DNA of 64,000 nucleotides from an uncultured Pseudomonadales bacterium (GCA_964625685.1 CAZVBO010000002.1:55440-119439); one strand, 5' to 3'; positions 49,542-62,203 are shown, counted from the first letter of the stretch. Notes: generated from the letters alone by a model not told the origin. Translations and numbers: made by a program.

Positions 49542-49581
49542 TATAATATGGACGAAAGCTAAATAGTCGACTTATCTACTT
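49542..49581 (+). promoter_or_regulatory. TATAAT box plus AGTCGACTTATCTACTT motif abutting the 49582 ATG
   Basis: tataat at 49542-49547. The 12-mer acttatctactt at 49570-49581 recurs at 52967-52978 and, reverse-complemented, at 62162-62173. No Shine-Dalgarno sequence is visible. Confidence 0.45.
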
Positions 49582-50334
49582 ATGAATAGGGAAATAATAA
49601 TAAAAAAAATAAAAGCTGTTGGATTTTTCGATTTTACTAATTGGGTTCAAAATAACAAAGAGCTTACAATCGCTCTAATTATTGTTTTTATAATATTTAT
49701 TGATATTTCTAATCTAGACGCTTCTTTTCACAAGGCTTTTTGTTTATCTCTAACAATATTACCAACATCAGTTGTTTGCCCAGATTTTTATGATATTCCT
49801 ATTTGGTCTTTTTTTGAAGTTGCCGGTGTAATAGCGACTGTTGTTGTTGCACTTTGGTCAGTAAATATTGGATTGAAACAAGCGAATAAGCAAGAAAAAA
49901 GTGCACAGGAAATCAAAATGGACCAGGACATGCCAATTATTTTTTTGAATCCTGAACCACAGCCGAAGTTACACAAAAATGGTGAAGTGTGTCTAGAGCT
50001 TATGAATGTTGGTAAGGGGATTGCCAAAGATGTATATGTATATATTGAAGACATTTTGGTTGAAGGAAATTTTTCAATGCTCACCGCCTCACCTGATAAT
50101 TTATCTGAACTAAAGATAAAATTTATTGCTTCTGATTCTTCACCTGAAAGGCAAAAGGCTATAGCACAAAAAATTCAACATTTTTCAGAAAAAAAGGATT
50201 TGCAAATGAAAATTACCTACTCTGACATTCACGGCCGATCATTTGTTACAGATCAAATAATATTTGAAAAAAACCAAGTTGGCGACTACATGCACAACAG
50301 GGGAAAGTGGTCGTTCCGAAAGGTTCAGTCATGA
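49582..50334 (+). CDS. Hypothetical membrane protein (2-3 N-terminal TM helices, beta-rich C-terminal domain)
   Basis: 250-aa ORF with hydrophobic segments LTIALIIVFIIFIDI and FFEVAGVIATVVVALWSV. ATGA-coupled to the next gene. Confidence 0.5.
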   Translation: MNREIIIKKIKAVGFFDFTNWVQNNKELTIALIIVFIIFIDISNLDASFHKAFCLSLTILPTSVVCPDFYDIPIWSFFEVAGVIATVVVALWSVNIGLKQANKQEKSAQEIKMDQDMPIIFLNPEPQPKLHKNGEVCLELMNVGKGIAKDVYVYIEDILVEGNFSMLTASPDNLSELKIKFIASDSSPERQKAIAQKIQHFSEKKDLQMKITYSDIHGRSFVTDQIIFEKNQVGDYMHNRGKWSFRKVQS

Positions 50335-51095
50335 ACACCTTCCTCCAATTAGCAAAACATATTCTTGAACAAGTTGGTCAACCTCTTCATTACAAAGAAA
50401 TCACTCAAAAAGCCATAGAGCAGGGCCTTCAAACAGAAGGGGCAACTCCTTGGGCCACCATGAATGCTCAAATCGCCACTGACATCAAAAAGAACGGTGA
50501 AGATTCACTCTTTTATCGAAGTGAGCCAGGTTTTTATGGTCTCAATCAAGAAGGTGTGCCTAAAGTGGCTGTTTCAGAAGTAAAGGCCAAGATTACCGGT
50601 GCCTTGCATAAAGTCACCTCTGACCTCAACACTAAGCAAAAAGGCGATATTGCCGAAGCCAGAGTGGCAGAACTGATTACTTTGTATGGTGATGAGGGTC
50701 TTTCTTGTTACCGTCCAATTAGTGATGACGAAGGCATAGATATTATTGTCAAAAAAAGAGGTGATCTCGATGTAGCTTATGTTCAGGTCAAATCAACCTT
50801 TGGCAATGGCTCTGATCGTTTTGTGTGCAGTGTCAAAGAGGACAAAATCGTCAACAAAAGAAGAATGCTGATGGTCTTTGTGTACTTTGATTTGACTGAC
50901 GGTGATATTCATGAGCATGTTTTTTGTGTGCCAGCATCTGAATTTTTGAAGCTCACTCACAATGAAAATAAAAAGCCAGGTCATCGAGTTTTTACGGTCA
51001 GCCTCAATAGTCCAGACAAATCAAAATATGCCAAGTATTTGATCGAAAAAAGAGAATTGGCTAATAAAATTCTTGAAATAATGAATGAAACATAA
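50331..51095 (+). CDS. HARE-HTH domain fused to a PD-(D/E)xK-like nuclease domain
   Basis: The N-terminal FLQLAKHILEQVGQPLHYKEITQKAIEQGL..TPWATMNAQIATDIKK....FYRSEPGFYGL fits the HARE-HTH (RpoE-delta N-terminal-like) pattern. The C-terminal E..(n)..DDEGIDIIV..(n)..VQVKS fits a D...(D/E/Q)xK restriction-endonuclease-like core. Confidence 0.55.
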   Translation: MNTFLQLAKHILEQVGQPLHYKEITQKAIEQGLQTEGATPWATMNAQIATDIKKNGEDSLFYRSEPGFYGLNQEGVPKVAVSEVKAKITGALHKVTSDLNTKQKGDIAEARVAELITLYGDEGLSCYRPISDDEGIDIIVKKRGDLDVAYVQVKSTFGNGSDRFVCSVKEDKIVNKRRMLMVFVYFDLTDGDIHEHVFCVPASEFLKLTHNENKKPGHRVFTVSLNSPDKSKYAKYLIEKRELANKILEIMNET

Positions 51096-52608
51096 AGCAC
51101 ACCTAACTGCATCTGATTTATACAACTACATTCAGTGTCCTCATCGTGTATGGCGTGATATATACGGTCCTCAACAAGAAAAACTCAAAGAAACAAATCC
51201 ATTTGTAGAAATGCTCTGGGAAAAGGGTGTTCAGCACGAAAAAGAAGTGTTGGGCAGGATGGGGGAGTTAGTTGATTTGGGAAAAGGGGACCAACAAGAG
51301 CGTATCCAAGCTACCAAAAAGGCGATGGATGATGGCGTGGACTTACTTTATCAGCCAGTAATAGTTCATGAAAATCTTTTAGGTATTCCGGACTTTTTGA
51401 AAAAGTTAGATGACGGCACGTATATGGCCGTTGATGTGAAGAGTGGTAGGGGCTTTGAAGGCACAGATGATGATACTTCTGAAAATGGTCCTAAGCTCAA
51501 AAAACACTACGCTGTTCAGTTGGCTTTATATACAGAAATTTTAGAAAAGAACGGATTTAGCAATGGCCACAGACAGGCAATTATTTATGATATTGAACAC
51601 AAAGAAGTGTTATATGAATTGGACCGCCAAATTGGCGTGCGGGACCAAAGAAGCTATTGGCAATATTACCAGTGGCTCAAAGTTGAAGTTTGGAATTTGA
51701 TCTCAAATCAAAAAAGCAATGACCCTGCAATGGCGGGAATTTGCAAACTTTGTCCGTGGTACAACAGTTGCAGTTCGTGGGTCAAAGCTAACGATGACAC
51801 CACTGGCTTATTCTACGTTGGCAGAAGTGTGAGAGACACTTTGAGAAGTGATATTGGTTTGACAACTATTCACGATGCTCAAAACATTGATGTGAATGAT
51901 CTCATGGCAGAGAAGGCTAAGGACAAGCAGTTTTTACAAAGAATTGGAGAGAAAACACTTGAGAAGATCAAGATTAGAGCTGAGATTATGGCTAATAAAT
52001 TGCCACCAGTTCTTTATGATGAATTAGATCTGCCAGATATGGAATATGAGCTTTTCTTTGATATTGAGGATGATCCAACTCAAGCATTTGTTTATTTGCA
52101 TGGTGTCTACGAAAGAACCTCAAAAGGGGAGCGGTTTATTCCATTTGTGGCTTCAAGCGTGACACCAGAAGCAGAGGCTCAAGCTTGGCAAGAGTTTTGG
52201 AATTATATTCGTTCACTGCCACAGGATGATTTTGCCTTGTATTACTATTCTCACCATGAAGAGACAACTTACAAGAAAATGGCTGATCTCTATCCGCACG
52301 TTGCTACAAGAGAAGATGTTGAGTGGCTATATCAAGATTCAAGAGCGATAGATTTGTACAGGGTCATCAGTAAATCAACTGATTGGCCTGTTGGCAGTTA
52401 TTCTCTCAAGAGTATTGCCAAGTATTTAGGTTTCAGTTGGCGTGACAAGACACCATCAGGGGCACTTTCTATCCAGTGGTATAACGGCTATCTAAAAACA
52501 GGTGATCAGGCTATTTTGGAGCGTATTTTGCTCTATAACGAGGATGATTGTATTGCCACTTTGGTGATCAAAGATGCCTTGATGAAAATGGTCCCAACTA
52601 ATTCTTAG
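51085..52608 (+). CDS. TM0106-type RecB/Cas4-like nuclease fused to an RNase-H-like (YprB-type) exonuclease domain
   Basis: LTASDLYNYIQCPHRVW, DVKSGRG, QLALYTEIL and CKLCPWYNSC form a Cas4-like PD-(D/E)xK core with a 4-Cys cluster. FFDIEDDP, YYYSHHEET and LLYNEDDC form an RNase-H-like DEDD-type pattern. It overlaps the upstream gene by 11 nt. Confidence 0.7.
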   Translation: MKHKAHLTASDLYNYIQCPHRVWRDIYGPQQEKLKETNPFVEMLWEKGVQHEKEVLGRMGELVDLGKGDQQERIQATKKAMDDGVDLLYQPVIVHENLLGIPDFLKKLDDGTYMAVDVKSGRGFEGTDDDTSENGPKLKKHYAVQLALYTEILEKNGFSNGHRQAIIYDIEHKEVLYELDRQIGVRDQRSYWQYYQWLKVEVWNLISNQKSNDPAMAGICKLCPWYNSCSSWVKANDDTTGLFYVGRSVRDTLRSDIGLTTIHDAQNIDVNDLMAEKAKDKQFLQRIGEKTLEKIKIRAEIMANKLPPVLYDELDLPDMEYELFFDIEDDPTQAFVYLHGVYERTSKGERFIPFVASSVTPEAEAQAWQEFWNYIRSLPQDDFALYYYSHHEETTYKKMADLYPHVATREDVEWLYQDSRAIDLYRVISKSTDWPVGSYSLKSIAKYLGFSWRDKTPSGALSIQWYNGYLKTGDQAILERILLYNEDDCIATLVIKDALMKMVPTNS

Positions 52609-52644: not shown

Positions 52645-52917
52645 ATGAGGTTTTTTGTAAATTCCAAGCTTCTAGGTGATGACCTAAAAATTGAAGAGAT
52701 TGAGTCAGCATCTGCTATTGAGAGCGAAGTAGTTTTTCAGTTTGATGGTAAAAAGATTTTCGGTAGGCTTGATTTTGATCAAAGTTCTTTGCCTAGTTTT
52801 ATTGTATTGAATAGTTGCTCAGGGACTGAAAAATATCCAGTCAATCAGATTGAACAGTTTCAGGTCCTTGATGAAGGAATTGCAGATTACTTTGGTCCAC
52901 CTATCTTTACTCAATAA
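52645..52917 (+). CDS. Small hypothetical protein (90 aa)
   Basis: ORF only. No motif and no clear RBS. Confidence 0.3.
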   Translation: MRFFVNSKLLGDDLKIEEIESASAIESEVVFQFDGKKIFGRLDFDQSSLPSFIVLNSCSGTEKYPVNQIEQFQVLDEGIADYFGPPIFTQ

Positions 52918-52958: not shown

Positions 52959-52978
52959 TATAATCTACTTATCTACTT
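52959..52978 (+). promoter_or_regulatory. Putative hsdR promoter: TATAAT immediately followed by the shared CTACTTATCTACTT motif
   Basis: tataat at 52959-52964 and the 12-mer acttatctactt at 52967-52978, 34 nt upstream of the hsdR ATG. Confidence 0.45.
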
Positions 52979-53011: not shown

Positions 53012-55408
53012 ATGGACAAATCACAACTATCTGAACGAGACATATGTACCAAATTTATTACGCCAGCAGTACAGCAGGCCGGTTGGGACGTTGATTCACA
53101 AATCCGTGAAGAAGTCAGTTTCACAAAGGGTCGCATCATTGTTAGAGATAAGGTGATTGCCAGAGGTAAACCAAAAAGAGCAGATTACATTCTTTACTAT
53201 AAAGAAAATTTTCCAATTGCCTTGATTGAAGCCAAGGACAACAAGCACTCAGTGGGTGATGGCATGCAACAGGGCCTTGAGTATGCTGAAACCTTGGATA
53301 TTCCTTTTGTGTTTAGCTCAAATGGAGATGCTTTCATAGCTCATGACAGAACTGGTATGTCAGCTGATACGGAAAAGCAGATTCGACTAGATGAATTCCC
53401 AAGCCCTCAAGAGCTGTATCAGCGATACTTGCGTTGGAAAAACATTGATATGGTCGAGGAGCAGATTCTGACCACAGACTACTACTATGACGCTCGTGGC
53501 AAATCACCTCGTTATTATCAACAAATTGCCATCAATAGAACTATTGAAGCAGTGGCCAATGATCAAAAGCGAATCATGTTGGTTATGGCCACCGGTACAG
53601 GGAAAACATACACAGCCTTTCAGATTATGTGGCGTTTGTGGAAGTCAGGGGCCAAAAAGAGAATTTTGTTCTTAGCGGACCGCAACATCCTTATTGATCA
53701 AGCAAAGACCAATGATTTCATTCCATTTGGTGACAAAATGACCAAGATCAGTAATCGCCAGATTGATAAGTCATATGAACTCTACCTTTCCTTGTATCAA
53801 GCTGTGACGGGCAATGAGGAAGAAAAGAACATCTACAAACAATTCAGTCCTGATTTCTTTGATTTGATTATTGTGGATGAGTGTCATCGAGGTAGTGCCA
53901 GAGCAGATTCAGCGTGGAGAGAGATTCTTGAATACTTTGACCATGCTACCCAAATCGGTTTGACTGCCACCCCAAAAGAAACAAAAGATGTCTCAAATAT
54001 TGATTACTTTGGTGAGCCGGTTTACACCTATTCACTCAAGCAAGGTATTGAGGATGGCTTTTTGGCACCTTATAAAGTGGTCCGTTACACCATTGATCGT
54101 GATGTTGAAGGCTACCGTCCAGAGCCTCATAAAAGAGATATTTATGGGGAAGAAGTTCCTGATGAGGTGTATTATGGCCATGATTTTGATCGCAAGCTGA
54201 TTATCGATGACCGAACCAAACTGGTAGCTAAGAAAGTAACTGAATACTTAGAAGCTAATGAAGCATTTGCCAAGACAATCGTGTTCTGTATCGACATCGA
54301 ACATGCCGAAAGAATGAGAAGAGCTTTGATCAATGAAAACCAAGAACGCTACCAAGAGAACTCTAAATACATCATGCGAATTACTGGTGACAATGAGCAG
54401 GGAAAAGCAGAATTAGACGGTTTTATTGATCCTGAGAGCAAATATCCAGTCATTGTGACTACTTCTAAGTTATTGACCACAGGTGTTGATGCTCAAACTT
54501 GTAAGTTAGTGGTCCTTGATGCTCCGATCAAATCAATGACCGAGTTCAAACAAATTGTAGGACGTGGTACGAGACTTCGTGAGGATCATGACAAGTTCTA
54601 CTTCACAATTATGGATTTCCGTAATGCTACGGATAACTTTGCAGATCCTGATTTTGATGGCGAGCCAGTGCAAATTTATGAACCAGTTTTGCCAGCAAAA
54701 ATTGAAGGGGTCCAACCCGTCAAAACACAGTCTGTTTCAACCGATGAACTAGATATTTCAGAAGTTTTGTATGATCCACAGCGTGTTGATGCCATGACAC
54801 TGAGAGATTCAGCCGGTGAAGTGGGGTATCGAACTGGTGGAGTTCACAAATACCACCTCAATGATGTAGAAGTGATGGTCTCAAGTGAGAAAATTCAATT
54901 TTATGATGAGGGTGGCAAACTTGTTTCAGAGTCACTGGAAGAGTATTCAGCCAAAAACTTGAAGAGGCTCTATCCTGAGCTAGCCGATTTCCAACGAGCT
55001 TGGGCGGAAGCTGAAAACAAAACGGTCTTGATTCACAGTTTAGTTGAGAATGGCTTTTTTATTGATGAGCTTCTAGAAAAAGTTGATCCCGCATTAGATA
55101 TTTTTGATTTGGTTCTGAGCGTTGCGTATAAGCAAGAAGCAAGCATGACTCGGTCCCAAAGAGCTCAGCAAGTACGAGGAAGTGAATTTTTCAATCAATA
55201 TCAAGATACACAAAAAGAGCTATTGCTTGATCTTTTGAGTGTGTATGAACAAGAAGGTATTGTGGCAATTGAGGACGTTGAATTGCTTAGGGTTGAACCA
55301 TTCACCAAGTATGGATCACCGGTTGAGATACTTGGGACCATTTTTTCTGGAAGAAATGAATATTTATTAGCATTAGCAGATATGAAGAAGCACTTATACA
55401 AAGGTTAG
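53012..55408 (+). CDS. hsdR: Type I restriction enzyme, R subunit
   Basis: N-terminal nuclease motif (RADYILY ... ALIEAKD) and SF2 helicase motifs MATGTGKT, VDECHRG, LTATP and QIVGRGTR. Confidence 0.92.
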   Translation: MDKSQLSERDICTKFITPAVQQAGWDVDSQIREEVSFTKGRIIVRDKVIARGKPKRADYILYYKENFPIALIEAKDNKHSVGDGMQQGLEYAETLDIPFVFSSNGDAFIAHDRTGMSADTEKQIRLDEFPSPQELYQRYLRWKNIDMVEEQILTTDYYYDARGKSPRYYQQIAINRTIEAVANDQKRIMLVMATGTGKTYTAFQIMWRLWKSGAKKRILFLADRNILIDQAKTNDFIPFGDKMTKISNRQIDKSYELYLSLYQAVTGNEEEKNIYKQFSPDFFDLIIVDECHRGSARADSAWREILEYFDHATQIGLTATPKETKDVSNIDYFGEPVYTYSLKQGIEDGFLAPYKVVRYTIDRDVEGYRPEPHKRDIYGEEVPDEVYYGHDFDRKLIIDDRTKLVAKKVTEYLEANEAFAKTIVFCIDIEHAERMRRALINENQERYQENSKYIMRITGDNEQGKAELDGFIDPESKYPVIVTTSKLLTTGVDAQTCKLVVLDAPIKSMTEFKQIVGRGTRLREDHDKFYFTIMDFRNATDNFADPDFDGEPVQIYEPVLPAKIEGVQPVKTQSVSTDELDISEVLYDPQRVDAMTLRDSAGEVGYRTGGVHKYHLNDVEVMVSSEKIQFYDEGGKLVSESLEEYSAKNLKRLYPELADFQRAWAEAENKTVLIHSLVENGFFIDELLEKVDPALDIFDLVLSVAYKQEASMTRSQRAQQVRGSEFFNQYQDTQKELLLDLLSVYEQEGIVAIEDVELLRVEPFTKYGSPVEILGTIFSGRNEYLLALADMKKHLYKG

Positions 55409-55411
55409 ATT

Positions 55412-56845
55412 ATGGCACTTTCAACAAAGATCAAAACGATTCAAAACATCATGCGTCAAGACAGTGGTGTCGATGGTGATGCTCAGAGAATTTCGCAATT
55501 AGGCTGGTTGATATTCCTCAAGATTTTTGACGATCGTGAGCGAGAGCTTGAGATCATGAAAGGGGATTATGAATCACCAATGCCAGAAGAGTTGAGATGG
55601 CGAAATTGGGCATTGGACGAAGAAGGTATTACTGGTGATGAGTTATTGAACTTTGTAAACAATGACCTTTTCCCTAAGTTGAAGAACCTTGAAGTCAAAT
55701 CTACCGATGATAAAAAGGCACTTATTTTACGGTCCGTGTTTGAAGATGCTTTCAACTACATGAAGTCAGGGACCTTACTTCGTCAGGTAATCAACGAGCT
55801 GAATGATATTGACTTTGCTAGTTCAAATGACAGACATGTATTCAATGATGTGTATGAAAAAATCCTCAAGGACTTGCAGAGTGCCGGAAATGCCGGTGAG
55901 TTTTACACCCCTCGTGCAGTTACTCAATTTATTGTGGACATGGTGGATCCAAAGCTTGGCGAAAAAGTATTTGACCCCGCTTGTGGTACCGGTGGTTTTT
56001 TGACATCGGTAATTGAGCATGTTCGCAAGAATGAAGTCAAAACGGGTGAAGACAACGAAGCTTTGGCAAATTCAATATATGCAGTAGAAAAGAAACCACT
56101 GCCTCATTTGCTTTGTACAACCAATATGATTCTTCATGGTATTGATGATCCAAGCAATATTGTCAGAGGTAATTCATTGGTTCGTCCTTTGCGTGATTAC
56201 ACCGAAGATGATAGGGTCCATGTGATCGTGACTAATCCACCGTTTGGTGGGACCGAAGAAGATGGAATTGAACTTGGCTTTCCAAAGAAGTTCCAAACAA
56301 GGGAAACTGCTGATTTGTTTTTGGTCCTGATTATTCATTTACTCAAAGAGAATGGTCGAGTGGGTATAGTTTTGCCAGATGGTTCTTTATCTGGTGAAGG
56401 TGTCAAACAGAGAATCAGAGAGCATTTGCTCAATAAATGTAATTTACACACGATTATTCGTTTGCCAAACAGCGTCTTCAAGCCATATGCCACTGTTAGT
56501 ACTAATTTATTGTTTTTCTCAAAGGGTGAGCCAACCAAAGAAGTTTGGTATTACGAGCACCAACTTCCAGACGGATACAAAAGCTATTCAAAGACAAAAC
56601 CAATTCAACTAAGTGAATTTGATGTTATCAAAAAATGGTGGAGCAACAGAGAAGAAGGTCCTTTTTCATGGAAGGTTGGCATCAAAGATATTGAAGAAAA
56701 AGGTTTCAACTTAGATATCAAGAATCCAAATATCAAACGAAAGAAAATTGAACAATCACCAGAAGAAATCATTTCAGAGATTCGAGAGAATCAGAGTCAA
56801 ATTGATCAATTGTTGAGTGAGATTGAGGAACTAATCAAATCATGA
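55412..56845 (+). CDS. hsdM: Type I restriction-modification system, M subunit (N6-adenine methyltransferase)
   Basis: HsdM N-terminal domain (IMRQDSGVDGDAQRISQLGWLIFLKIFDD), motif I DPACGTGGFL and motif IV VTNPPFGG. Confidence 0.93.
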   Translation: MALSTKIKTIQNIMRQDSGVDGDAQRISQLGWLIFLKIFDDRERELEIMKGDYESPMPEELRWRNWALDEEGITGDELLNFVNNDLFPKLKNLEVKSTDDKKALILRSVFEDAFNYMKSGTLLRQVINELNDIDFASSNDRHVFNDVYEKILKDLQSAGNAGEFYTPRAVTQFIVDMVDPKLGEKVFDPACGTGGFLTSVIEHVRKNEVKTGEDNEALANSIYAVEKKPLPHLLCTTNMILHGIDDPSNIVRGNSLVRPLRDYTEDDRVHVIVTNPPFGGTEEDGIELGFPKKFQTRETADLFLVLIIHLLKENGRVGIVLPDGSLSGEGVKQRIREHLLNKCNLHTIIRLPNSVFKPYATVSTNLLFFSKGEPTKEVWYYEHQLPDGYKSYSKTKPIQLSEFDVIKKWWSNREEGPFSWKVGIKDIEEKGFNLDIKNPNIKRKKIEQSPEEIISEIRENQSQIDQLLSEIEELIKS

Positions 56846-58032
56846 GCTATACATTAGATGAACTATGCCATATAGAAAAAGGCAAAATTGGCATTACAAA
56901 AGCCGTTGATGGTGAATATCCATTAGTTACCACTGGTGAAGATTTTGGAACACACAATGAATACCATTTTGAAGGTCCTGCTGTATGTGTGCCACTAGTT
57001 TCTTCAACTGGCCACGGACACGCTAGCATCAAGAGATTGCACTATATTGAAGGAAAGTTTGCTTGTGGAAATATTTTGGCAGTACTGATTCCAAAGGATC
57101 CAAGTAAGTTGTCAGCGAAGTTTTTATACACCTATCTTACTGTTCACAAACAGGAAAAATTGGTGAGAAAAATGAAGGGGGCGGCTAATGTATCTTTGAC
57201 TTTGACAAATTTGAAAAAAGTGAAAATTGAGGACTTGCCTTCGCTGAAAGAACAGGAAAAAATATCTAGCATTTATTCGTCTATTGATAAATTTTCTTTG
57301 GAATTTTTAAAAAAAATTGAATTCAACAAAACAAGAACTAGTACTCTAAAAAATAAGGTTATTGATTTGGCTGTGTTTGGCCATTTTTTACCATATTCAA
57401 ATAATGATTATTCATTTTCAGATGATTTTGATCACTTAGTTCCAAACAAGTGGTCATTTTCTAGCTTAGAGGATATAGCAGAATTCATTGATTATAGAGG
57501 CAAGACTCCAAAAAAAGTTGATACTGGTATTAGGTTGGTCACTGCTAAAAATGTAAAGCTCGGATATTTTTCATATGAGCCAGCAGAATATATGGAATCT
57601 CATGCTTATGATGATTGGATGACAAGAGGGTTTCCTCAAAAGAATGATGTTTTATTTACCACAGAGGCCCCATTAGCTAATACATGTTTATACCCGTTTG
57701 AGCACACAGAGAAAATTGCTTTAGCACAGAGAATCATTACATTGCACCCATATAATGATAGTGATTATATAAAAAGCAGATATTTGTTTTATTGCTTATT
57801 AGCACCTTCAATAAGAAGAAAAATTCAGGCAAAAGCAACTGGTACGGCCGCTTTAGGAATTAGATCTAGTAGGCTAAAAAAAATTATTTTTCCAGTACCT
57901 TCTCAAGATGAGATGCTGAAAATTGTGAATTTTTTGGAAGTTTTCTTTGAGTTCATTGAACAAATTGGATCAAAGGTTTCAGACAATGAAGAAATCATCG
58001 ATAAACTAAAAAATCAATCTTACAAAGGATAG
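56842..58032 (+). CDS. hsdS: Type I restriction-modification system, S (specificity) subunit
   Basis: Two target-recognition halves separated by conserved spacers (LPSLKEQEKISSIY, then FPVPSQDEMLKIVNFL). ATGA overlap with hsdM. Confidence 0.85.
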   Translation: MSYTLDELCHIEKGKIGITKAVDGEYPLVTTGEDFGTHNEYHFEGPAVCVPLVSSTGHGHASIKRLHYIEGKFACGNILAVLIPKDPSKLSAKFLYTYLTVHKQEKLVRKMKGAANVSLTLTNLKKVKIEDLPSLKEQEKISSIYSSIDKFSLEFLKKIEFNKTRTSTLKNKVIDLAVFGHFLPYSNNDYSFSDDFDHLVPNKWSFSSLEDIAEFIDYRGKTPKKVDTGIRLVTAKNVKLGYFSYEPAEYMESHAYDDWMTRGFPQKNDVLFTTEAPLANTCLYPFEHTEKIALAQRIITLHPYNDSDYIKSRYLFYCLLAPSIRRKIQAKATGTAALGIRSSRLKKIIFPVPSQDEMLKIVNFLEVFFEFIEQIGSKVSDNEEIIDKLKNQSYKG

Positions 58033-58040
58033 TGACATAA

Positions 58041-61010
58041 ATGAAATCTGATTACTTCACCCCTGACGGCTATCTATCAGCTCAAAAAGTTCGAGATGTG
58101 CTCAAGAACGTTGAGTATGAGGGTAAAAAATTATCAGAGGAAAAGGTGGGGGACATAGTTGAACAATTTTGGTTTCAGGATTACTACTCCAATTTTATTT
58201 GTATCCCAGACGTTTTTGAGTTCCTTCAAGAGTATTTAGAAGAGTATGGGCCAGAAGTAAAGAGAATCGATTTCTATCGATACCACTTTTCAAAGGTTGT
58301 TACTGACGATAAAAAAAAGTCCAGCTTAGAGCTAATCTCTGTTGATTTTGAAACAAAGCAACGCAATGACATAAATCAAGACCTTTTGCAGGAAGTTCTT
58401 GATAAACATGAGATCACTAATATTTCATTTGAGTGGTTACTTGAGAAGAAGTTCATTTGGCAAATAGAAGATAAATTTGAATGGCGTCACCACACATATA
58501 CTGAGTTCTTTGCTTCTGAATACATCCTCAAGCAAAAAGAGCCGATCAAAGTTGTTGATGAGTTAGCAGTTTTGAATGTTGAAGCTGACAACTCAAAAAA
58601 CATCAAGCCTTCGTGGCATGGTGTGATCAAGTTTTTACTTCAAAGCGAAATTTCCCATGATGCGTTGAACTGGCTTATTGGATTGATCAAAGAAAACCCA
58701 CTCAATTTGAGTGAAGATCTGACAAACATCATCAGCATGTTTGCTCCTCACGATTTAGATGATTCTGAAAAATCAGAGGTTTTCAATATTATTTATGACA
58801 CCTATCAAGAAAGAATGGTTTGGTTACCGGTCTGGGCAAGAACAGGGTTGGCTAAGTTTTTTACAACCACACAGTTAGAGAAATTTGAAAAGCACTTAGA
58901 AGCTACTGATGATGAGGTCGAAACATATGTCCATCGTGGCAACGTGGTGGCAGTAGTGGGTGAATTGATTGAGATAGGAATTATTAGTGATAAAAAACAA
59001 ATTGGCTTATGGAAGGATAGATTTGTTGAGTACGCCTTGGATGAAAATGATAATGGGGTACTGCAAAGGCACAGTCTTCATGCTCTTAGGCAGTTCAAAG
59101 AAAAAGATGGCCAACTGATCCTCAAGCTAAGAAAAAACCTGAATTCGTCAGATACTTTGGTTCGAGATGCATTTATTCAGTACTGCTCAGAGTCGGCCCC
59201 AAATACAAAAGAGGCAATAGACGTTTTTGCTGATGCATATGGCGAAGGAATGTCTCGTGTGTATAGCAGACACGGTATGTATGAAATTTCTTCATTGGAA
59301 GGCTTCACATATCTAATCGACAAACTAATAGACAATAGCAATTTCTTACATGAGTTTATTGATTCTGAATCAATCTTTGATGGTGAAAGAAAAGATCCCG
59401 ATGCAGAGTTTGTTCAAAAGATTATTGACTCGGCGAGGTCAAATACAGGTTTTGCTAAAAAGTTGAGCGATCTATTGAAGGAGGTCATAAAGAATGACGA
59501 AATATACCAGGTAGAACGTTCATATTTTGTTAGAAATATTAGTTTATTTCTTTTTGATGACCGCGACAGAGGTATTGAGTTTATCAAAGACGTAATTAGT
59601 GAAGAAGACATTACAAGGCATTTTGTTCATAACTTTTTTGACATACTTCCGGAAGTTTTGACGTCTGAGAATTGGCAAGAAATATTTGAAATTTTAGAAG
59701 CAACGGATATTGAATATGTTGATCGCCACCTTGAGAGAGTTTCGTATGGTCTTAGGTTTAGAAAAGAAGCTGGTGGTAAAGAACTATTTGAAGAGATTGC
59801 CCAAAAAAGAGGGTATAAGATCGAGAAACCAAGAGATTATGAGAAAGAAGAGAAAAAGAGGCAGGATGAGCTCTACAAAGAATTCAAATTCAAGATAGAA
59901 CCTGACAAGGGTCGGTTCATGGGAGATGTCTTTGAATATTACCTCAATAATGCAGAGGTTATTGAAGAGAGATGGTCTGATTATGAAGAAGAGCGAATGC
60001 TGTTCTTGGCTTACGAAGATGGTATCAAGAGGTTAGACCCAAGAGATTTTAGAGTCACATTTGAAGAGAAGAAAAAACGAGGAGGACGTTTTAGGTGGTC
60101 CAGTCAGGCCGCTTTTTATGGCGAAATGATCAAGGTTGTTCAGCGGATGAGACCTGATTTACTGGAAGAACCAGCTGTAAGACAACACATTATCGATTTC
60201 ACTCCGTATTGCTATTCTGATGACTACAAAGTGGTCCATGAGCTAATTACTGAGATTGAACCAAGTGATATTAGTTGGCTCGTTGAGCTCTACAAAAATG
60301 AAGATGATGATCGCCGGTATTTGGTCCCTGAATCATTTATTTATTTTCTTGAGAGCTTATTGGACCACAAACAAAATGTCACTAGTGCCATTCCAACACT
60401 TAGAACATTTATTCTTGATGAAAACATCTCGGATTGGGTAAGTCGAAGTGCTTTGGAGTTGCTAGGCAAAATTGAAGCATCAAGTAAGGATTACCAAGAT
60501 TTTCTTCAAGAGGTATTTGAAAAAACTGAATACGACAAAGTAAAAGAGGAAGCAAATAGGCAATTGATTGTTTTATTTGAAGAAGAAGAAGCGATTCAAT
60601 GGAGATTTGAGCAAATCAAAGCAAAAGTTTCTCCATTCAAGAGAGAAGAAGGTGTTCACTCGGTTGGTGAACTGGAAAGTGAGCTTGATTCAAGATCATT
60701 TATATCACCTCTTTGTGAGGTAAAGACAGAAAAAATACTCAAAGATTTTTTGAAGCTTTTTGAATATGTATTAGTTAAGTATGAAACGGATGAGGGATAT
60801 TCTGCCTACCTTGAATATGTTTGGGCAGCAATTATTAGATTTGTTTATAAATTTGACGAAGAACAGTTCTTTGACTTATACGCTAGATTGAAAAAATATG
60901 TTGAGGAGTCAGAGATTTCTAGTAAGAAGAGGCCTTACCTTGAGTATTCATTGCAGAAAACCAAAACAGATTTTATAAATAAAATGGCACTTGAAGGGAG
61001 AAATGAGTAG
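58041..61010 (+). CDS. Large uncharacterised all-alpha protein (989 aa) with a STAND-type winged-helix signature but no NTPase motifs
   Basis: It starts 8 nt after the hsdS stop. FEWRHHTYTEFFASEYIL resembles the F-x-H-x-x-F-x-E-[FY]-x-A signature that follows NACHT/STAND NTPase modules. The remaining ~800 aa look like helical repeats. No GxxxxGK[ST] occurs anywhere. Confidence 0.5.
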   Translation: MKSDYFTPDGYLSAQKVRDVLKNVEYEGKKLSEEKVGDIVEQFWFQDYYSNFICIPDVFEFLQEYLEEYGPEVKRIDFYRYHFSKVVTDDKKKSSLELISVDFETKQRNDINQDLLQEVLDKHEITNISFEWLLEKKFIWQIEDKFEWRHHTYTEFFASEYILKQKEPIKVVDELAVLNVEADNSKNIKPSWHGVIKFLLQSEISHDALNWLIGLIKENPLNLSEDLTNIISMFAPHDLDDSEKSEVFNIIYDTYQERMVWLPVWARTGLAKFFTTTQLEKFEKHLEATDDEVETYVHRGNVVAVVGELIEIGIISDKKQIGLWKDRFVEYALDENDNGVLQRHSLHALRQFKEKDGQLILKLRKNLNSSDTLVRDAFIQYCSESAPNTKEAIDVFADAYGEGMSRVYSRHGMYEISSLEGFTYLIDKLIDNSNFLHEFIDSESIFDGERKDPDAEFVQKIIDSARSNTGFAKKLSDLLKEVIKNDEIYQVERSYFVRNISLFLFDDRDRGIEFIKDVISEEDITRHFVHNFFDILPEVLTSENWQEIFEILEATDIEYVDRHLERVSYGLRFRKEAGGKELFEEIAQKRGYKIEKPRDYEKEEKKRQDELYKEFKFKIEPDKGRFMGDVFEYYLNNAEVIEERWSDYEEERMLFLAYEDGIKRLDPRDFRVTFEEKKKRGGRFRWSSQAAFYGEMIKVVQRMRPDLLEEPAVRQHIIDFTPYCYSDDYKVVHELITEIEPSDISWLVELYKNEDDDRRYLVPESFIYFLESLLDHKQNVTSAIPTLRTFILDENISDWVSRSALELLGKIEASSKDYQDFLQEVFEKTEYDKVKEEANRQLIVLFEEEEAIQWRFEQIKAKVSPFKREEGVHSVGELESELDSRSFISPLCEVKTEKILKDFLKLFEYVLVKYETDEGYSAYLEYVWAAIIRFVYKFDEEQFFDLYARLKKYVEESEISSKKRPYLEYSLQKTKTDFINKMALEGRNE

Positions 61011-61833
61011 TTCTTCCTTACCAATCCATGATGATTTTTCAAACAATCCTTTTGGTTTGCCTGATCCACCGACACCTAGGATTCCAACTGATCCATTAGA
61101 AAAAATTATCTATGCCTTTGAAGCTTGTCGTGGTGGAATACAACAAAGTCAGTTTCCTAATTACTCAGTAGATTCAATAATATGGTGTTTCAGGGCATTT
61201 GAATTGGTAAACAAGCTCAATGGGGAAGTGACTCAAAATGGTAAGAATCAGATTGAGAAATGGAAAAAACAGAAAAATATAGATTCAATGGATCAGGTGA
61301 CGGCCCTTTTTATAAGGAAGAAAGCAGAATTACCTGAATTTGAACTCGAAATAGAAAATCACTTTGATAACAAACATGTATATGTTGATTACTTTAGACA
61401 TACTTCACCGACTGATAAACTCCATTGGTTGAATTTTCTAATATATTTGGGATTTATAGACAATTCTGACTATAAACTCATTGATGTGTGTGACAGAAAT
61501 GGAAAAAGATATAAGTGGACTGAATCAGGTAAACTTTTTATTACAAAAATTAGAGAAGCAATTTCTCCAAAGGAAATCTTTTCAGATGGAGTAATCACTG
61601 AAGAACTAAACTGGCACGAAAAGACAAGAAAGTTTTTGTCAAAGATTCCCAAGTGGTTTTGGTCAATTCCTATCTTGATGATTCTACTAATTTTGCTTTT
61701 TTTTGCCAAACATTGGCTTCCCGTATTTTGTCCGATTGTAACTAAAGACAAAAGTACTTATCAGGTATTCAAATCGATAGAAATTGGACCTATCAATGGT
61801 TCTGAATTATGTGAGCCAATTCCGGAAAACTAG
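61003..61833 (+). CDS. Uncharacterised protein with a single C-terminal TM helix
   Basis: The ATG at 61003 overlaps the stop of the 989-aa gene (atgagtag). The alternative start is the TTG at 60991 used by the ORF track. TM segment WFWSIPILMILLILLFFAKHWLPVF lies near the C-terminus. Confidence 0.5.
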   Translation: MSSSSLPIHDDFSNNPFGLPDPPTPRIPTDPLEKIIYAFEACRGGIQQSQFPNYSVDSIIWCFRAFELVNKLNGEVTQNGKNQIEKWKKQKNIDSMDQVTALFIRKKAELPEFELEIENHFDNKHVYVDYFRHTSPTDKLHWLNFLIYLGFIDNSDYKLIDVCDRNGKRYKWTESGKLFITKIREAISPKEIFSDGVITEELNWHEKTRKFLSKIPKWFWSIPILMILLILLFFAKHWLPVFCPIVTKDKSTYQVFKSIEIGPINGSELCEPIPEN

Positions 61834-62120: not shown

Positions 62121-62162
62121 AGTAGGTTGCTTTCTATATTGCTTTGAATTATAGATCTAAAA

Positions 62163-62203
62163 AGTAGATAAGTCTACTAATAGTGCGTTTATCTTTAGTG
62201 CGT
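62163..62203. promoter_or_regulatory. Candidate operator cluster in the divergent intergenic region
   Basis: Palindrome AGTAGA-taag-TCTACT (62163-62178), followed by direct repeats TAGTGCGT at 62181-62188 and 62196-62203. Confidence 0.5.

Follow-up and report, generated by a model that had tools for sequence, protein, structure and literature searches.

Candidate accessory nucleases with HARE-HTH and Cas4-like domains at restriction-modification loci of Patescibacteria-type genomes

In a 64,000-nucleotide (nt) stretch of DNA from an uncultured Pseudomonadales bacterium (GCA_964625685.1, CAZVBO010000002.1:55440-119439; hereafter the window), three overlapping genes stand immediately upstream of a Type I restriction-modification (R-M) operon, hsdRMS: g1 for a membrane protein, g2 for a HARE-HTH nuclease, and g3 for a Cas4-like nuclease of the TM0106 family (Table 1). 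The reading we favor, with a probability of about 0.55, is that this region is the 5′ part of an R-M-centered defense island in a Patescibacteria-type genome, in which g2 and g3, two modular accessory nucleases, accompany R-M systems and are not parts of a closed three-gene system. Both proteins have recognizable nuclease domains with intact catalytic residues and a conserved but sporadic distribution, and the order in which they occur is polar (R-M, then g2, then a Cas4-like gene). They are genuine genes and not chance open reading frames (ORFs), because they have 593 (g2) and 1571 (g3) detectable full-length homologs, 53 to 96% identity, and invariant catalytic residues. A facultative pairing of g2 and g3 at R-M systems does exist; a self-contained system of a membrane protein plus two nucleases does not. 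The original prediction, made from the sequence alone, had taken two nucleases, a DNA-reading domain, and a membrane component for one defense module, and of this the link of both nucleases to defense genes stands, while the trio as a unit does not.

Domains of g2 and its position in R-M operons

Residues 3 to 72 of g2 match HARE-HTH (PF05066; E = 1.4e-17, 64.2 bits against a gathering score of 25.9), which is annotated on all but one of its top 120 homologs. For the remainder of the protein, PDDEXK_5 (PF11645) scores just below its gathering threshold (E = 5e-5, 23.8 bits against 26.1) and is carried by about half of the g2 homologs, and Mrr_cat (PF04471) falls short of its cutoff (15.2 bits against 21, residues 130 to 156 only). 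The catalytic residues E109, D137, Q152, and K154, which make up a D...QxK core, are invariant in 22 diverse homologs, and in the same set the HARE-HTH recognition segment TPWATMNA is nearly invariant. Foldseek matches of the AlphaFold model, which is of moderate quality (predicted local distance difference test [pLDDT], 73), include the SPARDA DREN nuclease (E = 3.5e-5), I-Ssp6803I (2ost; E = 1e-4), and EcoRV; a sequence search of solved structures returned nothing for the g2 profile and mere noise for g3. The PF05066 match, the invariant D137, Q152, and K154, and these fold matches together bear out the architecture first read from the sequence, a HARE-HTH N terminus joined to a D...QVK endonuclease-like core.

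The top 120 g2 homologs are nearly all 246 to 268 amino acids (aa) long and without exception 56 to 96% identical, and the few source names given for them are Patescibacteria. We scanned one representative genome for each of 185,579 species, using family-invariant peptides as probes, and recovered 19 g2 loci, 53 to 96% identical, in Pacebacteria, Roizmanbacteria, Gottesmanbacteria, WWE3, and Saccharibacteria; 39 more came from a metagenome scan, and de-duplication left 43 distinct loci (cited below by L numbers where they must be told apart). g2 is therefore described here as what it is on this sampling, a highly conserved yet sporadic, accessory gene of Patescibacteria. Six metagenome-assembled genome records with g2 loci (L001, L002, L007, L010, L012, and L016) are titled "uncultured Pseudomonadales" or "Gammaproteobacteria" despite typical Patescibacteria genes, and these titles are probably binning or labeling errors or the result of host-epibiont co-binning.

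Across the 43 distinct loci, R-M-type genes fill 35 of 99 slots among the four positions upstream of g2 compared to 2 of 104 downstream (Fisher p = 1e-10), and a same-strand R-M gene lies no more than 6 kb upstream in at least 20 of the 32 distinct loci that have at least 1 kb of upstream sequence. The immediate upstream same-strand neighbor is a Type I HsdR in 11 loci (counted before de-duplication); in others it is DUF2130 (itself after hsdR), HsdS, a Type III Mod or Res, an Eco57I/TaqI_C methylase, or a pair of PLD-SNF2 helicase and Eco57I methylase. The stop codon of the R-M gene frequently overlaps the g2 start codon, and the genes downstream of g2 and g3 are not conserved. An R-M operon downstream of g2 is found only as an exception, in the window and in L002. 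The association is polar and position specific across several R-M types (Type I, III, and IIG), and with these types dispersed over its tree, g2 has the behavior of a conserved cassette in terminal position.

Other accounts of g2 were tried and rejected. It does not supply a nuclease to nuclease-less translocases, since HSDR_N is retained in every one of the seven g2-linked HsdR proteins tested. Nor is it a core gene next to an insertion hotspot, since g2 is rare, its downstream flanks are variable, and upstream R-M genes overlap its start codon. Neither g2 nor g3 is a phage gene as a rule, viral contigs having given no match for g2 and one for g3.

Some g2-ending Type I operons carry additional genes. 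Shedu-type SduA_C nuclease genes lie between hsdS and hsdR in L045, L006, and L035, and these operons therefore hold several nested defense genes. A DUF2130 (PF09903) gene lies between hsdR and g2 in L005, L007, L011, and L033, and in L065 another lies before an SNF2 helicase gene that is itself followed by a g3 homolog; DUF2130 may be another uncharacterized R-M satellite.

g3 and the Cas4-like genes around g2

g3 is a clear TM0106 protein (TIGR03491; E = 7e-77, 259.3 bits against 97.45, with residues 8 to 497 aligned to positions 2 to 460 of the 462-position model), and it also matches RNase_H_2 (PF13482; E = 1e-30) and PDDEXK_1 (E = 3e-6). A Cas4-like signature (C18; D103; D117-x-K119; Q145..Y149; C220, C223, and C229) and a DEDDy signature (D326-x-E328; Y484..D488) are both invariant in 21 homologs. 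The description of g3 as a Cas4-like nuclease with four cysteines fused to a DEDD-like RNase H fold was correct on these matches and residues. Its score against CRISPR Cas4 (TIGR00372) is 27.4 bits against a cutoff of 65, which leaves it outside that family; a scan of the window found no tandem-repeat array, and the neighborhood of the trio showed no cas genes. The top 120 g3 homologs are about 500 aa long and 53 to 88% identical, and their named sources are mostly Patescibacteria.

Cas4-like genes (TM0106, DUF2779, or small PDDEXK_1) occupy 13 of 126 slots within two genes of g2 compared to none of 241 slots further out (p = 6e-7). A g3-type gene directly follows g2 in 8 of 36 distinct loci and lies no more than two genes away in 13 of 43. 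The TM0106 version follows g2 in the window, L001, L002, L004, L029, and L030, which form one g2 clade; the same clade holds L025, where g2 is followed by a SocA-HTH gene, and L023, where it is followed by a gene with an FtsK_alpha domain. Elsewhere the place is taken by DUF2779, a Cas4::RNase-H-like protein whose N-terminal half is homologous to that of g3 (hhalign, 90%, E = 1.5e-6) and which comes after g2 in L045, L018, and L049 and on the opposite strand, within two genes, in L010, L032, and L037. Small stand-alone PDDEXK_1 genes lie beside g2 in L041, L046/L047, L017, and L016. The usual order is R-M, then g2, then the Cas4-like nuclease, and the order in the window, with the pair upstream of hsdRMS, is exceptional.

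We inspected seven independent contexts of g3 homologs. None includes g2, and six are R-M, CBASS, or Abi neighborhoods. The original prediction had named as fatal to it that g3 homologs should behave as stand-alone housekeeping nucleases irrespective of their neighbors, and they do not. In L064 a Type III Mod-Mod-Res array runs into g3 with an overlap; in L065/L066, RhuM, DUF2130, and a 1236-aa SNF2 helicase precede it; in L070 an AAA_11/12 helicase, Mod, and Res do so; and in L071 it follows a CBASS locus (HNH-SAVED and SMODS). An AbiEii/Eco57I island surrounds g3 in L072, and in L068 it lies two genes from a TaqI R-M system. g3 tends towards a terminal position behind DNA-cutting or translocating defense enzymes.

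Beyond these loci, 71 plasmids from other phyla carry TM0106 genes. Three of the plasmid genes were inspected; they encode 1115 to 1144 aa, and all match MkoA helicase models in PADLOC; two of the proteins were scanned with Pfam and have a C-terminal AAA_11/AAA_12 superfamily 1 helicase. In these proteobacterial plasmid proteins the TM0106 module is the N-terminal half, and the C-terminal helicase resembles MkoA of Mokosh. Helicase fusion there and translocase neighbors in Patescibacteria are both compatible with a nuclease that depends on a motor or on pre-made ends. On Vibrio tubiashii p123, the TM0106 gene comes after BREX brxL/SMEK genes and before a TrlF/Ppl-like ATPase.

A g3 homolog of 49% identity is present in a genuine phage contig from IMG/VR (L069), which carries portal, Mu-F, and intein-containing genes; its neighbors are an HNH gene, a radical-SAM gene, a DNA polymerase III beta clamp, and a metallophosphatase. 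LexA-like genes (LexA_DNA_bind plus Peptidase_S24) lie close to g2 or g3, a few genes away at most, in five loci, and in one of these, L068, an N6_N4 methyltransferase is joined to the LexA module. The g2 island of L023 and the g3 island of L065, from different genomes, have in common a flank of elongation factor P (EF-P) and class II tRNA-synthetase genes, which suggests a common chromosomal hotspot with exchangeable defense cargo.

Such a hotspot is also part of a different explanation, by which g3, and possibly g2, would be housekeeping or salvage nucleases (for repair, recombination, or nucleotide scavenging) that replace RecBCD/AddAB in reduced genomes and come to lie near R-M genes through a shared insertion site. 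The DUF2779 protein MMSYN1_0389 of JCVI-syn3.0, a Cas4 domain plus an MrfB-like DEDDh nuclease, is quasi-essential in this minimal Mycoplasma, and MrfB, to which its DEDD domain is related, is a repair exonuclease (PMC13621843). The phage homolog in a replication module, the housekeeping surroundings of g3 in L067, the EF-P/tRNA-synthetase flank common to L023 and L065, and a conservation of g2 and g3 (53 to 96%) that is unusually high for defense genes argue in the same direction. However, g2 was found in only 19 of the scanned species-representative genomes and is thus no core gene, and the 71 plasmids with TM0106 genes, the variable downstream flanks, and the upstream R-M genes that often overlap the start codons of g2 or g3 are hard to reconcile with a housekeeping function; strict polarity and a limit of two genes would not be expected from hotspot sharing. 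We consider this explanation unlikely compared to accessory nucleases that travel with R-M systems.

g1, gene overlaps, and regulation

The g1 product has hydropathy peaks at about residues 22 to 50 and 80 to 98, corresponding to two predicted membrane helices, and its AlphaFold model (pLDDT 67 overall) has a beta-rich C-terminal domain at residues 120 to 250 (pLDDT 75 to 88), in agreement with the N-terminal transmembrane helices and beta-rich soluble domain originally proposed. No Pfam family matched, and a fold search of the model against the PDB gave no match at E ≤ 1e-3, just generic beta-sandwich and Kir-channel matches. Homologs are few: a search of 5.8 billion clusters gave 5, and exhaustive HMMER against 1.84 billion representatives gave 32 weak representative clusters (E ≤ 1e-3). 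Upstream of g2, g1 is confined to the closest lineage (the window, L001, and L075/L076) and, as a relative of 39% identity, to L025; apart from that relative it is missing from all loci whose g2 is less than about 85% identical. Even in L002, whose g2 is 89% identical, its position is taken by unrelated ORFs of 136 and 74 aa, and another g1 homolog adjoins a STAND NTPase with no g2 there. g1 is a rare, lineage-specific gene.

These observations bear most directly on the idea that g1, g2, and g3 are a self-contained, novel three-component defense system, a membrane sensor or anchor with two nucleases, that merely adjoins hsdRMS. The overlaps of stop and start codons fit translational coupling. 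An ORF scan and direct reading of the junctions confirmed three same-strand ORFs with an ATGA overlap of 4 nt between g1 and g2 (50331-50334; ...GTCATGAAC...) and an 11-nt overlap between g2 and g3 (51085-51095; ...ATAATGAATGAAACATAAAGC...); the former recurs in L001 and L075, and the latter in the relatives L001, L002, L004, and L030. A common upstream motif, described below, marks the operon start. The earlier statement that no named system matches also held up: PADLOC-DB v2 (Shedu, Gabija, Hachiman, Kiwa, Zorya, Nhi, Mokosh, PDC candidates, and others) gave no matches for g1 or g2 and, for g3, just Cas4 models at E = 5e-7 or weaker. The three genes nevertheless fail to co-occur. The window and L001 alone have all three; g1 is absent or replaced in L002, L004, L029, and L030, and g3 does not follow g2 in L025 (g2 91% identical), in L023 (73%), or in about 80% of loci. 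Together with the scarcity of g1 homologs, the one beside a STAND NTPase, and the seven of seven g3 contexts that are free of g2, this missing co-occurrence largely refutes a three-component system, which we regard as highly improbable.

The 12-mer ACTTATCTACTT occurs as three exact copies in the 64 kb of the window, compared to 0.39 expected at up to one mismatch, and only within the island. Each copy lies just 5′ of an operon start, namely, those of g1, of hsdR, and of a 96-aa ORF divergent from a gene with an XRE-type helix-turn-helix (HTH), where the motif makes an AGTAGA-N4-TCTACT inverted repeat. In the two closest relatives, L001 and L002, the 12-mer is kept at equivalent positions and heads the g2 operon. 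We regard the motif as a candidate operator acting across the island, and its presence before both the g1-g2-g3 operon and hsdR suggests that the pair is co-regulated with the Type I system; the hsdR element is probably a separate yet co-regulated promoter. Scans for sigma-70 promoters and terminators performed no better than on shuffled sequence and were not used as evidence.

A conserved candidate operator before the g2 operon and hsdR could point to g2 as a regulator (a C-protein-like HARE-HTH binder) or an addiction toxin-like nuclease of the R-M cassette, with g3 as an unrelated passenger, and the invariant HARE-HTH recognition segment and the terminal place of g2 in operons of many R-M types would suit such a role. 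On balance we find it improbable. The full catalytic set of g2 is invariant, which is needless for a pure regulator; the 12-mer was looked for in 70 more distant loci and was absent from them, so it is no family-wide g2 operator; the XRE-type HTH gene by the third copy offers a more conventional candidate binder; and the position-specific link with Cas4-like genes would be left unexplained.

Possible roles, known relatives, and surrounding features

Several points weigh against reading g2 and g3 as accessory nucleases that travel with R-M systems. The adjacency of TM0106 genes to g2 is essentially that of one g2 clade, and the g2 of the window lies below the gathering scores of both PDDEXK_5 and Mrr_cat. 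Neighbors were labeled by crude gene calling of our own and by BLAST against a small set of references, and the association statistics count loci and not independent events, with no correction for phylogeny. In the window itself a separate promoter-like element precedes the R-M operon, which lies downstream, and the coupling may reflect only a shared island. The g2-linked HsdR proteins retain HSDR_N, and hence the R-M enzyme is complete without g2. The phage replication module of L069 and the quasi-essential DUF2779 protein point to general DNA-end processing and not to dedicated defense, and the flanks of g3 in L067 are mostly housekeeping genes. The literature that we found on TM0106, PF13482, COG2251, and DUF2779 consists of classification papers and one annotation paper from 2026, with no functional study among them. 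COG2251 comes up in the classification papers alone, and the searches turned up no paper devoted to the TM0106 protein family; we also found no account of the g2 family or of the g2-g3 pairing.

For the substrate, activity, cooperation, and anti-phage effect of g2 and g3, we infer the following scheme. The architecture of g2 is that of an Mrr-like, Type-IV-style enzyme, and by analogy g2 may depend on modified DNA. Its HARE-HTH segment is invariant, whereas the specificities of its partner R-M systems are diverse, and it would therefore read a generic DNA state and not a sequence. That state may be a base modification, most likely one that the partner amino-methyltransferases do not make; the partner methylases seen are all of amino-methyltransferase types (N6_Mtase, N6_N4_Mtase, and Eco57I), so a reader of cytosine modifications would be compatible with the host genome. 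In E. coli, mrr and mcrBC complement hsdRMS in the immigration control region, and cytosine-modification reading by g2 could complement R-M in a similar way. The PD-QxK core would cut DNA that carries the recognized modification. Cas4-type nucleases in characterized relatives are 5′-3′ exonucleases, and g3, a Cas4-type iron-sulfur (Fe-S) nuclease joined to a DEDDy 3′-5′ exonuclease, may resect or degrade the ends left by g2, HsdR, Res, or HNH effectors as a RecBCD-like finishing step. g1 would be co-translated with g2 and dispensable for the general design.

A more specific proposal, which we put forward tentatively and with considerable doubt, is that g2 and a Cas4::DEDD exonuclease (TM0106 or DUF2779) form a distinct two-gene, second-line module at the 3′ end of any Patescibacteria R-M operon. 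HARE-HTH would flag DNA that escapes or blocks R-M (e.g., through modified cytosines), PD-QxK would cut it, and the helicase-less double exonuclease would destroy both strands, which would provide a RecBCD-like step and possibly feed nucleotide salvage in these auxotrophs.

HARE-HTH has been suggested to be a sensor of adenine or, likelier, cytosine modifications (PMC11037411, citing Aravind & Iyer 2012), and comparative genomics has led to the proposal that HARE-HTH::REase fusions at Dnd and BREX loci are modification-discriminating auxiliary or backup nucleases (PMC10853773 and PMC12839542). As described there, the fusions share with g2 the two-domain layout, placement just after modification or restriction genes, and a proposed auxiliary role; they differ in that the partners of g2 are Type I, Type III, and Eco57I-type R-M systems of Patescibacteria and in that the g2 family is a tight 250-aa clade with a core like PDDEXK_5 or I-Ssp6803I, often followed by a Cas4-like exonuclease. 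The best fold matches of the g2 nuclease domain, SPARDA DREN and I-Ssp6803I, are only 14 to 18% identical to it, and g2 has no Argonaute partner or intron context. E. coli Mrr resembles g2 in having an N-terminal reader of winged-helix type, a C-terminal PD-(D/E)xK core of D...QxK form, and a place beside a Type I R-M system; it differs in its reader, which is Mrr_N in Mrr and HARE-HTH in g2, and the g2 match to Mrr_cat is below the cutoff. A PD-QxK motif in Mrr is mentioned in PMC11037411.

For g3, the nearest described relatives are other two-nuclease proteins. COG2251/PF13482 and DUF2779 have been classed as predicted 3′-5′ exonucleases fused to a DUF83 (Cas4-like) domain, with COG2251 as RNase-H-like family F.13 (PMC3985635). 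As a clear member of TM0106/COG2251, g3 represents the Patescibacteria form, which is helicase-less and lies beside R-M translocase genes, in contrast with the helicase-fused form of proteobacterial plasmids. DUF2779 (PF11074), a Cas4::DEDDh protein, has the same two-nuclease architecture with an exonuclease half from another Pfam family; its quasi-essential member MMSYN1_0389 has lost two of the four cysteines, whereas g3 is accessory and retains all four. The PD-(D/E)xK core, QxxxY motif, and 4-Cys Fe-S signature of g3 are also those of CRISPR Cas4 and of the AddB/RecB domains. Stand-alone effector nucleases in or at the end of R-M operons, like g2 and g3, have counterparts in PrrC of EcoprrI and in Shedu between hsdS and hsdR, but PrrC and SduA have no sequence kinship with g2 or g3, and latency under control of the R-M complex is not evidenced for the latter. 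By analogy with these systems, a backup or second-line role for an R-M-carried effector nuclease is plausible.

Two uncharacterized nuclease families thus share a polar grammar, R-M, then HARE-HTH nuclease, then Cas4-like exonuclease, that gives a testable hypothesis for both. TM0106/COG2251 spans several bacterial phyla, plasmids, and occasional phages without an assigned function, and it gains a functional lead that extends to DUF2779. Patescibacteria and Proteobacteria also offer a natural comparison between a nuclease module encoded separately beside R-M translocases and one fused to a helicase. If the favored reading is true, it would explain how bacteria that possibly lack RecBCD or AddAB finish restricted DNA, and it would add a second layer to R-M immunity in Patescibacteria, a large share of bacterial diversity for which very few known defense functions are reported (PMC12366544). 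If it is not, a false candidate for a three-gene system has still been removed.

The 5′ neighbors of the trio (Table 1) are ordinary genes, namely, a cysteinyl-tRNA synthetase (CysRS), a RadC-like ORF (labeled by eye from the sequence), a bactofilin-domain membrane protein, and PspC, and the island therefore begins near 49.4 kb. Between g3 and hsdR lie orf90 and a 94-nt spacer that contains a TATAAT box of its own. The R-M operon is of Type I, with HsdR, HsdM, and HsdS all present, contiguous hsdM and hsdS ORFs, and an REase_I match of 1095 bits in PADLOC; the domains of its HsdR are HSDR_N, ResIII, and EcoEI_R_C.

Table 1. Coordinates of genes and sequence elements in the window and of selected genes in other loci
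Feature	Location	Strand	Description
g1	49582-50334	+	250 aa, ORF scan
g2	50331-51095	+	254 aa counted from ATG; GTG at 50307 likewise open
g3	51085-52608	+	507 aa, ORF scan
orf90	52645-52917	+	90 aa, between g3 and hsdR; no family match; 80% conserved, same position in L002
Putative promoter/operator of g1-g2-g3 operon	49542-49581	+	TATAAT (49542-49547) and 12-mer ACTTATCTACTT (49570-49581), touching the g1 ATG; predicted function
hsdR-upstream element	52959-52978	+	TATAAT (52959-52964) and second ACTTATCTACTT copy (52967-52978)
Type I R-M operon	53012-58032	+	hsdR 53012-55408, hsdM 55412-56845, hsdS 56842-58032
HEAT-repeat ORF	58041-61010		989 aa; begins 9 nt past hsdS
280-aa ORF	60991-61833		Overlaps the end of the 989-aa HEAT ORF
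ACTTATCTACTT copies, window	49570-49581; 52967-52978; 62162-62173	+; +; -	
ACTTATCTACTT copies, relatives	L001 3002-3013; L002 4621-4632, 7901-7912		
Plasmid TM0106-helicase genes	L077 5974-9321; L078 5974-9363; L079 5971-9405		Roseomonas; Piscirickettsia; Vibrio
LexA-like genes	L020 20438-20753; L064 9001-9627; L067 14592-15200; L068 4477-6000; L071 3856-4437		
SduA_C genes	L045 3650-4858; L006 4417-5493		Between hsdS and hsdR
DUF2130 genes	L005 8730-9989; L007 8727-9983; L011 4426-5484; L033 1166-2425		Between hsdR and g2
DUF2130 gene	L065 1723-3228		Upstream of SNF2 helicase
g3 homolog, phage contig	L069 7998-9506		49% identical
EF-P/class II tRNA-synthetase flank	L023 19237-20753; L065 13149-14741		g2 island; g3 island

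The two ORFs that follow hsdS gave no PADLOC or NCBIfam match, and searches of PADLOC, NCBIfam, and PHROGs returned nothing useful for these two, g1, or orf90. The 989-aa HEAT ORF accompanies hsdRMS in L002 as well, at 84% identity, and it and the 280-aa ORF may be further R-M accessory genes.

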